Assembly: GCA_965224195.1 (NCBI GenBank)
Contig: OZ245040.1
Span: 832,001-896,000 of the forward strand
Source: Nitrosopumilus sp.
GTDB taxonomy: Archaea > Thermoproteota > Nitrososphaeria > Nitrososphaerales > Nitrosopumilaceae
Length of the DNA: 64,000 nt
Direction of reading: 5' to 3'
Part shown: one piece after another, positions 9,528-55,447 of the stretch
Numbering within the stretch: position 1 is the first letter of the stretch
Layout of the letters: each line of letters starts with the position of its first letter
Program-made: the position numbers and the translations under genes
The notes under the pieces: generated by a model
The model's input: only the letters and a program-made list of their open reading frames with translations
What the model was told of the DNA's origin: nothing
Database searches by the model: none

Positions 9528-10409
9528 ATGAATAATTTTGCTGTAGAGGAGATGTATTCGGAAAAATATACAAAGTTGCCTAGTGTTAGTTCTCTTTTGA
9601 AAATATTTCTTGGATTAATCTTGTTTACTATGATTTCAACTGTATTAGTTTATGCTGAAACAATGTCTGTTGATGTTGATGGAGCTTCTTTTGATGTAGA
9701 ATATGTTGCAACAGGAATGACTGTTTCAGGAATTGAATCTGACACTGATTTCATTTCTTTGATATTAACTGTAGATGTAACTGAATCAACTGGTACATTG
9801 GATATTATATTAGATCGCTCTTTCTTTGATTTAACCTTTGAAGGATTAGATGATGACTTTATTATTTTAGCAGACGGTGATGAACCAAATTTTTCAGAAA
9901 CTGCAACTACTCCTCAAAGCAGAACTTTGAGTCTTGAATTACCTGCTGGTACTGAAGAAATAGAAATTATTGGTTCCGTATTTGGTGATTCTACAACTGT
10001 AGTTCCAGATACTAGTGAAGATGATACCGCAGCAGATGCAGCAGCAGTCAAAGCCGCAGCAACAGCAGATGCAGCAGCAGTCAAAGCCGCAGCAACAGCA
10101 GATGCAGCAGACAATACAACAATACAGTGTGGCCCTGGAACAGTTCTTGAAAACGGAGCATGTGTACTTGATGAAAGATGTGGCCCTGGAACAGTTCTTG
10201 AAAACGGAGCATGTGTACTTGATGAAAGATGTGGCCCTGGAACAGTTCTCAAAGATGGATCTTGTGTACTTGATTCAACATCATCACCATCAAGTTCCGG
10301 TGGAAAAGGAATGGGCAAAGAATCGATAATGGGATTTGTTGTGGCATTTTTAGGTGCTGGAATTGTTGCAGTTGTTTTTGGAATAATTGCTAGAAGCCAG
10401 AAAAAGTAG
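9528..10409 (+). CDS. Exported, C-terminally anchored protein with Ala-rich and Cys-rich repeats
   Basis: Signal peptide, acidic domain, AAAVKAAATAD repeats, CGPGTVL..G.CVLD x3, C-terminal TM plus basic tail; start uncertain. Confidence 0.75.
   Translation: MNNFAVEEMYSEKYTKLPSVSSLLKIFLGLILFTMISTVLVYAETMSVDVDGASFDVEYVATGMTVSGIESDTDFISLILTVDVTESTGTLDIILDRSFFDLTFEGLDDDFIILADGDEPNFSETATTPQSRTLSLELPAGTEEIEIIGSVFGDSTTVVPDTSEDDTAADAAAVKAAATADAAAVKAAATADAADNTTIQCGPGTVLENGACVLDERCGPGTVLENGACVLDERCGPGTVLKDGSCVLDSTSSPSSSGGKGMGKESIMGFVVAFLGAGIVAVVFGIIARSQKK
10030..10110 (+). repeat. 33-bp tandem repeat (Ala-rich linker)
   Basis: cagcagatgcagcagcagtcaaagccgcagcaa, about 2.4 copies. Confidence 0.85.
10128..10274 (+). 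repeat. 51-bp tandem repeat x3 (CGPGTVLENGACVLDER)
   Basis: Two identical copies at 10128 and 10179, diverged third at 10230. Confidence 0.92.
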
Positions 10410-48086: not shown

Positions 48087-50114
48087 GTGGTAGAAAATAA
48101 TCTTATTCATGAAAGTAGTCCTTATCTATTACAACACGTGAATAATCCTGTTAATTGGTATGCTTGGAATGATGAGTCCTTAAAAAAAGCAAAAGATGAA
48201 AACAAACCCATTTTCTTAAGCATTGGTTACAGCGCTTGCCATTGGTGCCATGTAATGGCTCATGAATCTTTTGAAAATGAAGATGTGGCTGAATTTATGA
48301 ATGAACATTTCATTAACATAAAAGTTGACAGAGAAGAAAGACCTGATATTGATGATATATATCAAAAAGTTTGTCAAATAGCTACTGGTCAGGGTGGTTG
48401 GCCGTTGAGTATTTTCCTTACACCTGATCAAAAACCATTCTATGTTGGTACCTATTTTCCTGTTTTGGATTCTTATGGTCGTCCTGGATTTGGAAGTATT
48501 TGTAGACAACTCTCACAAGCATGGACAGAAAAACCAAACGATATAGAAAAATCTGCTGAGAAATTTGTTGCTACATTACAAAAAACTGAAACAATGCAAA
48601 CTACTTCAAAATTAGAACGAGCCATTCTTGATGAGGCAGCAATGAACTTGTTTCAATTAGGAGATGCAACTTATGGTGGATTTGGTTCAGCACCAAAATT
48701 CCCTAATGCTGCAAATGTGTCATTTCTGTTTAGATATGCAAAATTAACTGGATTGGGGAAATTCAATGAATTTGCGCTCAAAACTCTCAAAAAAATGGCT
48801 AATGGTGGCATCTTTGATCAAATAGGAGGAGGTTTTTCTAGATATTCTACTGATGCAAAATGGTTGGTTCCTCATTTTGAAAAAATGCTTTATGACAATG
48901 CTTTGATTCCTGTAAACTATGCTGAAGCATACCAAATAACCAAAGATCCTTTTTATCTTGATGTTTTGAAAAAAACACTTGATTTTGTTTTACGTGAAAT
49001 GACTTTGCCTGAAGGTGGTTTTTATTCTGCATATGATGCAGACTCTGAAGGCATAGAAGGAAAATTCTATGTGTGGAAAAAAAGTGAAATTAAAGAAATT
49101 CTAGGAAGTAATGCAGATCTATTTTGTTTATACTATGATGTAACTGATGGAGGAAATTGGGAAGGGAATAATATTTTGTGCAATAATCTTAACATCTCTA
49201 CTGTTGCCTTCAACTTTGGAAAAACTGAGTCTGAGGTTAGCGATATTTTAAAATCTTGTTCAGAAAAATTACTCAAAGTCCGTTCAACAAGAATTCCCCC
49301 TGGATTGGATGACAAGGTATTAGTTTCATGGAATTCATTGATGATTACTGCATTTGCTAAAGGATACCGTGTAACTGGAGATGAAAGATATCTTAATGCC
49401 GCAAAGAATTGTATTTCCTTCATAGAACAAAAACTTTTTGTGAATGAGAAATTATTGCGAACTTACAAAAATGGAGTCGCAAAAATTGATGGATATTTGG
49501 AGGATTATTCTTATTTTGTAAATGCGTTACTAGATGTATTTGAAATTGAACCAAATGAAAAATATCTTAAATTATCTGTGAAACTAGGACATCATTTAGT
49601 AGATCACTTCTGGGATTCTGAAAATAATAGTTTCTTTATGACTTCTGATGATCATGAAAAACTGATTATTCGACCCAAGAGTAATTATGATTTATCTTTG
49701 CCCTCTGGAAACTCTGTCTCTGCCTTTGCTATGCTTAGGCTATATCATCTATCTCAAGAAAAAATATTCCTTGAAATCACTACAAAAATAATGGAATCTC
49801 AGGCACAAATTGCTGCTGAAAATCCATTTGGATTTGGATATTTACTAAATACAATTTCGATGCATATTCAAAAACCTGTAGAAATTACTTTGATTAATCC
49901 TGAAAATTCTGAAATACGGAAATCACTTCATCTAGATTATTTGCCTGATTCTATTTTAATAACAATTCAAACTTCTGCTCAATTAGAATCTCTTTCAGAA
50001 TATCCATTTTTTACAGGTAAATCATTTGAAGATAAAACTAGTGTGTTTATTTGTAAAAATTTTACTTGCTCTTTACCTTTACATACACTTGAAGAAATAA
50101 ACTCAAATCTTTAG
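48087..50114 (+). CDS. YyaL/SSP411 thioredoxin-domain plus (alpha/alpha)6 barrel protein
   Basis: [35 protein letters not shown]. Confidence 0.92.
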
Positions 50115-50431
50115 ATTTTTTTTAAATCTGTTGCAATAATATTTCCAACTTGCGGTCTTCCCATACTGTCATATCTTGATCTTGGCATTGCTATTGTCAT
50201 CTGAGTTTGTTGATATGATTTGATATTTACTTTTGGTTGTGCTTGTAGAATTGCTTCTAATAATGGCATTACTTGCTCTTTAGTTTCAGAATCTAAATTT
50301 TTTGCAACATTTTCTATGATCATTTGTTGTTGTGAAATAGGCTCGGTGGTGATGTTTTCAATCAAAGTTAATTGAATCATTTGACCATTATCTACTATTT
50401 GTGTAATTTTAAATTCATTTGTAGCTGACAT
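50111..50431 (-). CDS. Hypothetical protein
   Basis: 106-aa ORF ending Y...GRPQVG. Confidence 0.7.
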
Positions 50432-50462
50432 TGTTATACTTTGTTTCTTTGATGATTTATCT

Positions 50463-50555
50463 TTAACGAATTGAAAAGTACAATGCTACACCTGCAGTCA
50501 CTACGGCAGCAGCAACTCCTAAGAAAAAAATTATCTTACTTCCATCTACATTCAT
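50463..50555 (-). CDS. 30-aa single-TM microprotein (not in track)
   Basis: MNVDGSKIIFFLGVAAAVVTAGVALYFSIR. Confidence 0.55.
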   Translation of the reverse strand: MNVDGSKIIFFLGVAAAVVTAGVALYFSIR

Positions 50556-50674
50556 AGACTTTGTTTATAATGGTTGGAATTAAACTATACTGATTTTTTT
50601 AAAATCTGCTTACTGATGATTTCTACGTAAGTGTTTTAATAGAAATTTGCTAATCTTTGATATCGCATGCTAAC

Positions 50675-50783
50675 TGTATTCATACATCTGCGATAGTACA
50701 ACCAGTCTAACCTGTAAATGGTGCTTGTATCGTTCCTAGTTTTGGATGTATTCATACATCTGCGATAGTACAACCAGTCTAAC
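50675..50783. CRISPR. Orphan CRISPR-like unit: 37-bp repeat, 35-bp spacer, 37-bp repeat
   Basis: tgtattcatacatctgcgatagtacaaccagtctaac at 50675 and 50747 (identical); spacer ctgtaaatggtgcttgtatcgttcctagttttgga; no cas genes in window. The repeat is certain; CRISPR function is not. Confidence 0.4.
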
Positions 50784-50792
50784 AGGAGTCAT

Positions 50793-50818
50793 AAGGAGTG
50801 TCCAATTGGGCACTCTTT
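50793..50818 (+). terminator. 11-bp hairpin downstream of the repeat unit
   Basis: aaggagtgtcc-aatt-gggcactcttt; the two G.U pairs work only on + strand. Confidence 0.5.
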
Positions 50819-50827
50819 CATTATAAT

Positions 50828-51160
50828 CTAGTCTGTCTTTTCAGGCACGATTTTTGCGTCTTGCATGGCTTCATCTTTTGGAGGATTTATGATTGCCTTT
50901 TTGATTAATGCTGCTTTGTCTTTTATTATCTGATTAAATTCTTTCATGTCCTCTAAACTTGGTGTTTGTTGTTGATTTTGATATGCTTGTAAAAATCCAG
51001 AATATACACATCCTGTAATGATTCCAAATGCTGTATCTGGAATTGATTTTATCTCGGGAATAAAATTTTCTGCTATTTGTTTATATGATTCTGATTCGCT
51101 AATGTAATAATCAATCAAACTATCTATGAAATCTTTGTTTTCTTTAGAAATTGCCATCAT
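50828..51160 (-). CDS. Conserved thaumarchaeal hypothetical protein
   Basis: DTAFGIITGCVYS motif, helical. Confidence 0.7.
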   Translation of the reverse strand: MMAISKENKDFIDSLIDYYISESESYKQIAENFIPEIKSIPDTAFGIITGCVYSGFLQAYQNQQQTPSLEDMKEFNQIIKDKAALIKKAIINPPKDEAMQDAKIVPEKTD

Positions 51161-51232
51161 TATTGTCTTTATTTCCTAGTTTATTTAATTGTCTTTGATT
51201 AATCGTTTATTTATTCATCAACTCTTTGCAAG

Positions 51233-51691
51233 ATGTTGTGGAAATTAGAATCAGATGAGGGGTATTTTCGAATCTATGATTCCAAAAAACTCATTGCAGG
51301 ATATTTTGATCCTGATTATGGGGATATTTTACCCAAAGAAAATTCTGAAGAAATCATTTTTTCCATGTTGAAAAATCATGATAAAATTTTAGGTGGAATA
51401 CTTATGGTTCCTCTTGTTAAATTTAGATTATTTGACACTGATTTGAATACTTCATTGACAAATGTAGAATCTCAAGTAAATCGTGTTAATGACCATTTAC
51501 AAAAATGGAAATTATTTATATCTAAAATGAAATATGATTGGCATTCTGTAAGAATTTCTCATACTGACCAAGACATGCTTACTATATCATTCCAAATGAA
51601 ATTTTCAAAACCTACGCCTCTTGAAAATAAAGCATTACTTGAAGAACTCTTCAATACATTGGAAAATTTACAAAAATCTGAATTACTTTAG
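51233..51691 (+). CDS. Hypothetical protein
   Basis: 152-aa ORF (AGYFDPDYG, SHTDQDML). Confidence 0.7.
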   Translation: MLWKLESDEGYFRIYDSKKLIAGYFDPDYGDILPKENSEEIIFSMLKNHDKILGGILMVPLVKFRLFDTDLNTSLTNVESQVNRVNDHLQKWKLFISKMKYDWHSVRISHTDQDMLTISFQMKFSKPTPLENKALLEELFNTLENLQKSELL

Positions 51692-54419: not shown

Positions 54420-55298
54420 TTATGAGTTTAGTTGAGCATCAATTACTTTTTTGAAACTCTCAAATGGTTGGGCTCCTTTTAATTCAACAAATCCAATTTG
54501 ATCATTTCCTACAAAGAATCCTGGTGTTCCTGAAATTCCATAATTTCTTCCATCATTAAGATCATTTTGAATTTCTGGAATGTGTTTTCCACTATTGAGA
54601 CATAAATCAAATAATTCTTGATCTAATTGCATGTCTGATGCATATTGACTGAATAATGATAATGCATCACTAATTTCTAGTCTATTCCAATTATTTTGAT
54701 TTTCAAATAATGCATCATGCATTTCTCTAAACTTATTTTGATCATTTGCACATTCAGCTGCAACTGATGCTGGTAATGCATTTGGATGAATACTTTGAAT
54801 TGGGAAATCTCTAAAAACTAATTTCACTTTACCTTGTTCGATATATTCCTCTAATAGTGATGGTAATGTTTGAGTGTGGAATCTTGCACAAAATGGACAC
54901 TGAAAGTCTGAAAATTCTACAATGGTGATTGGGGCATCAGGATTTCCTATGATGGGATCATTGTCCATTGAAATTTTTACTGGTTCTGCTGCTTGTTTAG
55001 TAGGTAATTGGTTTTGTAATAATTTTAACTGATCAAAAGGAATGAAACCTTCGCCACTATCAGAATGTTTAGTAGGTAATTGGTTTTGTAATAATTTTAA
55101 CTCTAGTTTTGCTATTGCCTCATCAAGATCTACTGTTGAAATCTGGTTTGAATTTAGATTTGATGTGTATGATCCTGCAAAAAATGCTGTAATCCCGACT
55201 AGAATTATTATTCCTATGACCAATCCATTAAAAGTAGATTTTTTTACAGAAATCTTTTCATTATTATTTTGATTTATTTCTGAATCATCTAAACTCAT
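54420..55298 (-). CDS. DsbA-family thiol-disulfide oxidoreductase carrying a 24-aa duplication-insertion
   Basis: TM anchor, EFSDFQCPFC, GTPGF; ATG 55298 preferred because the track start (55379) overlaps the tRNA. Confidence 0.9.
   Translation of the reverse strand: MSLDDSEINQNNNEKISVKKSTFNGLVIGIIILVGITAFFAGSYTSNLNSNQISTVDLDEAIAKLELKLLQNQLPTKHSDSGEGFIPFDQLKLLQNQLPTKQAAEPVKISMDNDPIIGNPDAPITIVEFSDFQCPFCARFHTQTLPSLLEEYIEQGKVKLVFRDFPIQSIHPNALPASVAAECANDQNKFREMHDALFENQNNWNRLEISDALSLFSQYASDMQLDQELFDLCLNSGKHIPEIQNDLNDGRNYGISGTPGFFVGNDQIGFVELKGAQPFESFKKVIDAQLNS
54994..55102. repeat. 37-bp perfect direct repeat flanking a 35-bp unique insert inside the DsbA gene
   Basis: tgtttagtaggtaattggttttgtaataattttaact at 54994 and 55066; insert gatcaaaaggaatgaaaccttcgccactatcagaa. 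Confidence 0.95.
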
Positions 55299-55373
55299 TT
55301 CTATTAAATCTAAATCTAGTATACTTAATCGTATTGCCAAATATTGGATTAAGGATGTTATAGAAAAGAAAAG

Positions 55374-55447
55374 AGCCAATGACGGGATCTGAACCCATGA
55401 CCTATTGATTACAAATCAATTGCTCTACCAGGCTGAGCTACATTGGC
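55374..55447 (-). tRNA. tRNA-Thr(UGU), intronless, CCA not encoded
   Basis: GCCAATG/CATTGGC acceptor stem, D arm AGCTCAGCCTGGTAGAGC, anticodon arm ATTGA-TTTGTAA-TCAAT, T arm GGG-TTCAGAT-CCC. Confidence 0.95.

Follow-up and report, generated by a model that had tools for sequence, protein, structure and literature searches.

We analysed a stretch of 64,000 nucleotides (nt) from a Nitrosopumilus sp. genome (contig OZ245040.1, positions 832,001 to 896,000, forward strand), referred to below as the window, which contains an intergenic repeat–insert–repeat unit at window positions 50675–50783. The direct repeats are perfect, each of 37 nt (TGTATTCATACATCTGCGATAGTACAACCAGTCTAAC), and start 72 nt apart, so that 35 nt lie between them (Table 1). 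When up to three mismatches are allowed, the 37-mer occurs only twice in the window (matches in dinucleotide shuffles, 0/100), and the whole genome of 2,067,682 bases holds the same two copies and no others. An earlier sequence-only reading of the window had described these paired repeats, a small hairpin (tgta-ttca-taca), an upstream tatcgca able to pair with tgcgata, and a closing hairpin of 11 base pairs (bp) with G·U pairs on the plus strand. All of these were recovered: the small hairpin opens each repeat, tgcgata lies inside each repeat, and the closing hairpin includes two G·U pairs. The TATA-like ttttaata is also where it had been placed, but the distance from its end to the first repeat is 33 nt and not 25–30 nt. 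The plus-strand RNA of 50661–50822 (162 nt) folds at −44.7 kcal/mol, corresponding to z = −3.0 against 200 shuffles.

The structure is present in the sequencing reads. In runs X1 and X2, a 95-nt unitig spans repeat, insert and repeat at 0.84–0.90 of the flank depth (105 and 349, as compared with flanks of 112–123 and 378–450), and the unitig of the 37-mer itself is about twice as deeply covered as the flanks. Run X3, which comes from a second, independent study, contains the same junctions and an insert that carries a single T>C change at 50737. Among 23 runs listed, there was no RNA run containing the locus.

Insertion into a conserved small-RNA-like gene

In order to look for an empty site, window positions 50100–51300 were used as a query against 40 relatives. 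The query splits at 50711/50747 in G015 (93% identity), G012, G003, G019 and G007, and in the first three of these exactly 37 nt of the subject are covered by both alignment pieces. In an alignment of eight same-genus relatives (alignment A1), a single 37-mer is followed directly by AGGAGTCATAA and the hairpin, the insert and the second copy being missing. A wider draw found the element in 40 of 120 other genus genomes, each time as one contiguous match, and the split form in the genome under study (G000) only. Since the relatives carry a single 37-mer and no insert, the unit is the derived state, an insertion that duplicated 37 bp of its target site.

The element that received the insertion is conserved in its own right. 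Upstream of the repeats lies a 34-nt block in which nearly all columns are invariant or at least 90% conserved among 29 genus relatives. It would be the promoter of the element, putatively on the plus strand. The block is nearly invariant across 29 species (window 50612–50645, loci L032–L061), its flanks being just 74–91% identical. This conservation exceeds what a plain TFB-recognition element and TATA box need, and the block could also serve a divergent 30-codon open reading frame (ORF) at 50463–50555 on the minus strand.

Two helices follow the block. In the 7-bp stem, three of the seven pairs never vary and 98.5% of cells are paired; the other four vary on one side only, mostly to G·U or U·G on the plus strand. 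The terminal hairpin has a consensus of 8 bp, and in most relatives four or five T residues in a row come after it. The sequence-only reading had called for a covariance analysis across relatives, and covariation is found in this hairpin among the same 29: compensatory changes occur in five of the eight consensus pairs, a score reached in 0/500 shuffles, and at one pair, for example, 10 sequences have CG, 10 have UA and 6 have UG. Sliding the hairpin partners by 1–3 columns leaves only 30–52% of cells paired, compared with 97% when unslid. The single-sequence fold of the G012 element gives z = −3.7 against shuffles. Read from the opposite strand, the many G·U and U·G cells would not pair, and it is on the plus strand that the T-run lies 3′ of the hairpin; therefore a plus-strand RNA is the best reading, and in relatives the intact element would give an RNA of roughly 85–95 nt.

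The insertion point lies between the stem and the terminator, which leaves the latter intact, and the 3′ half of the stem is still supplied by copy 1. Of the two possibilities raised from the sequence alone, a pre-existing non-coding RNA that received a spacer-like insertion is thus the one borne out, with a one-copy element conserved in relatives and the marks of RNA-level conservation (covarying hairpin, plus-strand G·U pairs). The event is recent and its target is a conserved small-RNA-like gene. The unit is probably carried passively in the plus-strand transcript of the host element and would have no guide role.

Searches with Rfam gave no match at gathering score, either at the window locus or at the intact loci of three relatives, and a transfer RNA scan found nothing at the locus. 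Two other identities were considered by eye on the alignment and rejected. A C/D-box small RNA was suggested by UGAUGA in the conserved block, but there is no D box at the right spacing; a 16-codon minus-strand ORF has its ATG deleted in several relatives. In relative G014, the same small-RNA-like element contains an independent tandem duplication of 17 nt (TGTATTCACATACCTGC twice; L007 ~2040–2090, homologous to window 50661–50700). The locus also flags a conserved small-RNA-like element in the genus that is so far undescribed.

Units of like geometry across the chromosome

The genome encodes an archaeal AmoA and three Cas1 genes (244–310 bits, open frames), each adjoining a large CRISPR array (Table 1). 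Among the 131 spacers of array C, the modes are 35 nt (38 spacers) and 36 nt (40 spacers). The 37+35 geometry of the focal unit is exactly one array C unit, and within one base of array A. In the best register the focal 37-mer matches 12 of 36 positions of repeat A and 16 of 37 of repeat C, random sites averaging 11.6 and 12.7, and by this comparison its sequence is unrelated to both. The adaptation module is apparently intact. Two degenerate array-A-like repeat copies (CTTCAATGGGACCGTAAC...) were noted at C1:1626225-1626320, about 0.9 Mb from array A (the prefix C1, like the bare numbers by which units are named below, denotes chromosomal positions); these may be a remnant, or else a piece of array that was transposed.

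A catalogue of 39 loci was curated by hand from an exact direct-repeat scan and a list of 49 rows that had passed an ‘isolated’ filter. Twelve rows were dropped as tandem or low-complexity protein repeats (131906, 433382, 501190, 563999, 963056, 1073460, 1074064, 1475444, 1586102, 1717459, 1879835 and 1911472) and four as poorly fitting pairs (196376, 813397, 1541048 and 1619789). Five loci lost to that filter (146508, 912527, 912673, 1326359 and 1326527) were re-added from the exact scan, as was 1541050. Each of the 39 loci has its own duplication, with a median length of 37 nt (interquartile range 36–38), an insert of median length 36 nt (35–37) and a median period of 73 nt; the duplication measures 35–39 nt in 33 loci, which form the core set. 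Locus 912673, at 30+36, has the geometry of array B. When two-copy exact repeats of at least 30 nt were counted (spacers of at least 15 nt, periods 40–130), 24 of 48 fell at periods 71–75, and every other period held 0–3, except period 120, which is due to tandem 60-mers in proteins. A mismatch-tolerant scan gave 4, 9, 11, 6 and 2 isolated loci at periods 71, 72, 73, 74 and 75, a distribution that mirrors arrays A and C. Growth beyond one insert was seen in 0/39 units.

The units are modestly enriched near CRISPR arrays, with 19 of 39 within 100 kb of one as compared with 11.4 expected (P ~0.006). The 200–600 kb region contains none. At 912527–912768 and 1326359–1326638 (C1), pairs of independent units lie 150–170 nt apart, with different duplications and inserts, which suggests local integration hot spots.

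Empty sites are supported at six of seven testable loci, the focal one included (Table 1). The regions of 911484, 912527, 912673, 1541050, 1542932 and 1549643 are not common to the five relatives searched. One of the testable loci, 1639458, lies in an insertion sequence (IS)-like gene; homologues of this gene (C1:1639000-1640000) number in the dozens in G014 (91 matches) and are few in the other relatives searched. Relatives were also scanned for such units with the same script, in 400-kb samples rather than whole genomes. The units found there track the local array geometry, and equal-sized samples of the genome under study hold 9, about 7 and 0.

We also asked where the inserts come from. 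Eight of the 39 are full-length, near-exact copies of other chromosomal sites, and their matches end exactly at the insert edges (37/37 in the case of unit 911484); these inserts therefore originated by the copying and pasting of spacer-sized pieces. By contrast, canonical spacers matching the chromosome number 0/288, and the arrays thus serve as an internal control. The occurrence of self-matches outside the arrays only fits selection against self-targeting in arrays and not in inert scars. The guanine-plus-cytosine (GC) content of the inserts is 0.415, as compared with 0.414 for canonical spacers (p = 0.74) and 0.337 for random genome segments (p = 5e-7), and the 31 non-self inserts have a mean of 0.428. 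Similarity between inserts is limited to an 11-nt match in T-rich parts of two of them. Hairpins are not enriched (mean minimum free energy −3.16 versus −2.95 for random genome, p = 0.93), and four of the 39 inserts fold at −8 kcal/mol or below. For the focal insert, the rest of the genome yielded no match. Three self-derived inserts (units 907258, 898236 and 1892823) have their sources within the 39 kb of C1:195937-234901; two of these sources lie 12 kb apart, and their counterparts are also about 12 kb apart on one G015 contig. This segment may be a hot spot for prespacer generation.

A second independent unit within the window lies in frame in a gene for a DsbA-like thioredoxin (54420–55379, minus strand; Pfam Thioredoxin_4/DSBA). 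The ORF remains open with the unit, at 331 codons as compared with 307 after in silico excision, and the insert is a 35/35 exact copy of C1:1253098-1253132. The effect on genes was measured more generally by removing each unit in silico and measuring the open frames. The reading frame is kept by units of 72, 75 or 78 nt; some units lengthen a gene by about 24 codons, and others split ORFs (Table 1). Elsewhere in the window, at 1340–1607 and 10030–10274, there are perfect tandem repeats with unit lengths of 30 nt (8.9 copies), 33 nt and 51 nt, which probably encode repeats in surface proteins.

Table 1. Features of the focal locus (window positions), followed by the second unit of the window, the resident arrays and further units (chromosomal positions), and the 400-kb samples of relatives
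Feature	Position	Strand	Description
Promoter-like block	50612..50645	+	ACTGATGATTTCTACGTAAGTGTTTTAATAGAAA, 34 nt, near-invariant; TATA-like ttttaata at 50634–50641; from alignment of 29 relatives
5′ half of conserved 7-bp stem	50661..50667	+	UAUCGCA; partner UGCGAUA inside the duplicated 37-mer; from covariation table and single-sequence folds
Copy 1 of 37-bp target-site duplication	50675..50711	+	Native host-element sequence, including 3′ half of stem; 100% identical to copy 2
Spacer-sized insert	50712..50746	+	ctgtaaatggtgcttgtatcgttcctagttttgga, 35 nt; lacking in all 8 aligned relatives
Copy 2 of 37-bp target-site duplication	50747..50783	+	Identical to copy 1
Terminator-like hairpin	50793..50818	+	11 bp here, loop AATT, then T-run; compensatory changes in 29 relatives
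Second independent unit	54994..55102 (C1:886994)		37-bp duplication 54994–55030 / 55066–55102, 35-nt insert 55031–55065; insert absent from all 5 relatives tested, subject overlaps 32–37 nt
Array A	C1:707205-713740		90 repeats, all identical, 36 nt; spacers mostly 36–37 nt; type I-G: Cas4g/Cas1g fusion (715 bits), Csb2, Cas3g, Csb1 (NCBIfam)
Array B	C1:941990-946529		69 repeats (68/69 identical), 30 nt; spacers 36–37 nt; Cas4, Cas1b, Cas2 (NCBIfam)
Array C	C1:1457181-1466783		132 repeats, all identical, 37 nt; spacers mostly 35–36 nt; type I-B-like: Cas7/Csh2, Cas5b, Cas3, Cas1, Cas2, Cas4 (NCBIfam)
Unit	739057		Frames now 327 + 120 codons; 414 after removal
Unit	1490408		Frames now 197 + 117 codons; 284 after removal
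Unit	1639458		Frames now 144 + 162 codons; 279 after removal; in multi-copy IS-like gene, copies in G014 and G015 without insert, 35-nt overlaps
Unit	1228750		Frames now 215 + 115 codons; 308 after removal
Unit	898236		Empty site; subject overlaps 35–37 nt in G012, G019, G003
Unit	907258		Empty site; query gap exceeds subject gap by 71–75 nt
Unit	1892823		Empty site; subject overlaps 36–37 nt in 4 relatives
G002 sample	0.8–1.2 Mb		No Cas1; 0 units
G123 sample	1.42–1.82 Mb		Around 30-nt-repeat array; 0 units
G123 sample	0.44–0.84 Mb		Around I-G array, period 71–74; units of 37+36 and 36+38, close to array
G087 sample	1.30–1.70 Mb		Array period 70–72; two 35+34 units

Probable off-target spacer integration and its alternatives

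Relative to the ancestral state the focal unit is an insertion with a duplication, it has the dimensions of the resident arrays, and many parallel events have occurred on the same chromosome. We consider it highly likely, with a probability of roughly 0.9, that the unit is the scar of an off-target (ectopic) spacer integration by resident Cas1–Cas2, together with Cas4, an event of the ‘neo-CRISPR’ kind. Cas1–Cas2 would have catalysed the event, with either the I-G or the I-B-like module responsible. In the mechanism we propose, two transesterifications, staggered by 37 bp, would link a 35-nt prespacer to non-CRISPR DNA, in this case the body of the conserved small-RNA-like gene. Gap filling would then copy the 37 bp between the attack points and leave target copy, insert and target copy, a product with the dimensions of one repeat–spacer unit of the arrays with 36/37-nt repeats (type I-G array A and type I-B-like array C). 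The same misfiring would have left the approximately 39 fixed scars in the chromosome.

Several results weigh against off-target integration. A source for the focal insert did not emerge: exact scans of viral, metagenome and genome contig collections gave 0 matches, as did 150 other genus genomes at up to three mismatches, and blastn against phage records gave chance-level matches only (E of at least 0.1), among them 22 nt of a Nitrosopumilaceae spindle-shaped virus (E = 4). No common protospacer-adjacent motif (PAM) was found in the flanks of the eight self protospacers. Duplications of 43–54 nt at four loci are not predicted by a strict ruler, and among the 33 core loci the lengths of duplication and insert are negatively correlated (r = −0.36), which we attribute to boundary ambiguity. 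The target sites resemble the canonical repeats weakly, with a mean best identity of 13.0 as compared with 11.6 for random sites (repeat A) and 12.9 as compared with 12.7 (repeat C). Their sole clear signal is a terminal C (0.51 versus 0.22 expected, z ~4), next to a weak initial G or C and R at −3, with nothing else clear. In addition, the catalogue depends on hand curation, and at 739057, the seventh testable locus, the alignments stop at the boundary.

A bolder extension of the off-target reading holds that the misfiring of adaptation, at about 39 fixed events, is frequent enough to make it a mutagen from within and to supply proteins with insertions of 24 residues, and that the focal unit is a proto-array transcribed from the host RNA promoter, at least partly processed or used, and a natural intermediate in the birth of a CRISPR locus. 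We regard this as very unlikely. The sequence-only reading had similarly spoken of a snapshot of de novo array birth, a description that is fair for the raw event and sits less well with the catalogue, where 0/39 units were seen to have grown past one insert.

Among explanations of another kind, we considered a process unconnected with CRISPR, in which a tiny mobile element or hairpin, or repair or slippage, always adds about 72 nt, made up of a copied piece and a compensating target duplication. The tight clustering of periods at 72–74 and the negative correlation between duplication and insert length speak for it, but the period, being the sum of both lengths, has a variance of 2.57, which is not below the 2.67 of the insert by itself, and the period distribution mirrors arrays A and C, with one unit of 30+36 resembling array B. 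The eight inserts copied from the genome itself, the four that fold well and the lack of a PAM at the self protospacers would also be compatible with it; against this, the inserts share no sequence family, are not enriched in hairpins and have the GC content of canonical spacers and not of the genome. Moreover, the scars of relatives follow the period of their own arrays, and the Cas1-negative 400-kb sample has none. Taken together, a process of this type seems very unlikely. Two related candidates were rejected: a transposon, miniature inverted-repeat transposable element or mobile hairpin, given 39 inserts without significant mutual similarity and without hairpin enrichment, and an att-site remnant of an integrated element, given an insert of just 35 nt.

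The sequence-only reading had also proposed a minimal CRISPR-like guide. In this case the unit would be a functional minimal CRISPR locus with its own promoter, processed and acting as a guide for Cas proteins encoded elsewhere. A promoter-like block and a terminator-like hairpin do bracket the unit, but this bracket is a pre-existing element that is free of the insert in relatives. The repeat ends ...TAAC and matches 16 of 37 positions of repeat C in plus orientation; it is nevertheless unique, and its similarity to the resident repeats is near the random-site average. Effector and adaptation genes are available in the genome and the unit persists in the run of the second study, yet no target was found in the contig collections, the phage records or the 150 genus genomes. 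The 38 sister units, many of them inside ORFs, have repeats of their own, eight of the 39 contain self DNA that would be autoimmune if active, and none was seen with more than one insert. A guide role is therefore hardly probable. The description of the unit as an ‘orphan’ fares better in one respect, in that the repeat sequence is unique in the genome, but it stands beside three CRISPR-cas loci and 38 further units of like geometry. As for a false tandem structure produced by assembly or sequencing, short-read graphs do break at the 37-mer, but the 95-nt spanning unitig near flank depth, the approximately doubled depth of the 37-mer, the same junctions with one single-nucleotide difference in the run of another study, and 38 analogous loci, several with matching empty sites in relatives, make the chance of an artefact negligible.

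Comparison with known systems

Casposons are kilobase-scale elements that make short duplications of about 14–15 bp. They were rejected as the source of the scars, there being no solo Cas1 in the genome (the three Cas1 genes all lie in cas operons) and the duplication being of the wrong size. What they share with our case is a Cas1-family integrase that makes a target-site duplication, and integration by Cas1-family casposases is, according to the accounts cited, known in Nitrosopumilus (PMC8464041; PMC4046053).

Mini-CRISPR arrays of viruses and proviruses, as summarized in PMC8616872 from Faure 2019 and Medvedeva 2019, have repeats identical or very similar to those of the host, and most of their spacers have targets. 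The focal unit likewise has one spacer between two repeats. In contrast to that description, its repeat belongs to the chromosome itself and is unrelated to the arrays, relatives show synteny at the locus, and the searches for a target gave none. Isolated arrays offer another parallel, with a repeat–spacer–repeat arrangement far from cas genes and a repeat unlike those of cas-adjacent arrays; three origins have been proposed for these, and the acquisition of spacers off target is among them (PMC13142298, citing Shmakov et al., 2020). Unlike in that account, the origin as an insertion is here demonstrated by empty sites and not proposed, and there is a single insert.

Off-target integration has been reported in vitro for Cas1–Cas2 of Pyrococcus furiosus, at sites that share specific repeat sequence features (PMC6698737). 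Both cases concern the entry of spacers into non-CRISPR DNA through archaeal Cas1–Cas2, as our reading would have it. As described there, the positions of the two attacks depend on motifs within the repeat and on their spacing. Where the P. furiosus off-target sites have features of the repeat in common, the scars analysed here display only a weak preference for a terminal C and an initial G.

Another precedent is the ‘neo-CRISPR’ arrays formed by off-target integration in Escherichia coli over-producing Cas1–Cas2 (Nivala et al., 2018, via 10.1101/148544; PMC7054753; PMC6698737). In these sources, the evidence for such arrays in two other species is called ‘circumstantial’. Our limited open-access literature search, confined to titles and abstracts, turned up no natural genome with many such scars and none in ammonia-oxidising archaea. 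Events of this kind are known, but a natural series as large and clean as the one in this genome is unusual. Its useful features include visible empty sites, insert sources with exact edges and measurable effects on genes, namely split genes and tolerated in-frame additions of 72–78 nt. Questions that it opens in a wild organism concern the fidelity of archaeal I-G and I-B integrases, the cost of adaptation to the genome, whether self DNA enters the prespacer pool freely with selection acting only later, and how frequent are proto-arrays that never grow.

Like the E. coli arrays, as far as the cited accounts describe them, the scars hold an insert the size of a spacer at a site outside any array, have a duplication as long as a repeat and would depend on the resident adaptation module; neo-CRISPR arrays have been suggested there as raw material for new arrays. 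The differences are those of setting and scale. The documentation in those accounts comes from over-production in E. coli and from in vitro work, whereas here the events are natural and fixed, number about 39 in one archaeal chromosome and are tied to type I-G and I-B-like systems with 36/37-nt repeats. Furthermore, empty sites survive in relatives, inserts derive from the genome itself, genes are broken or extended, and the focal scar lies inside a conserved RNA-like gene.

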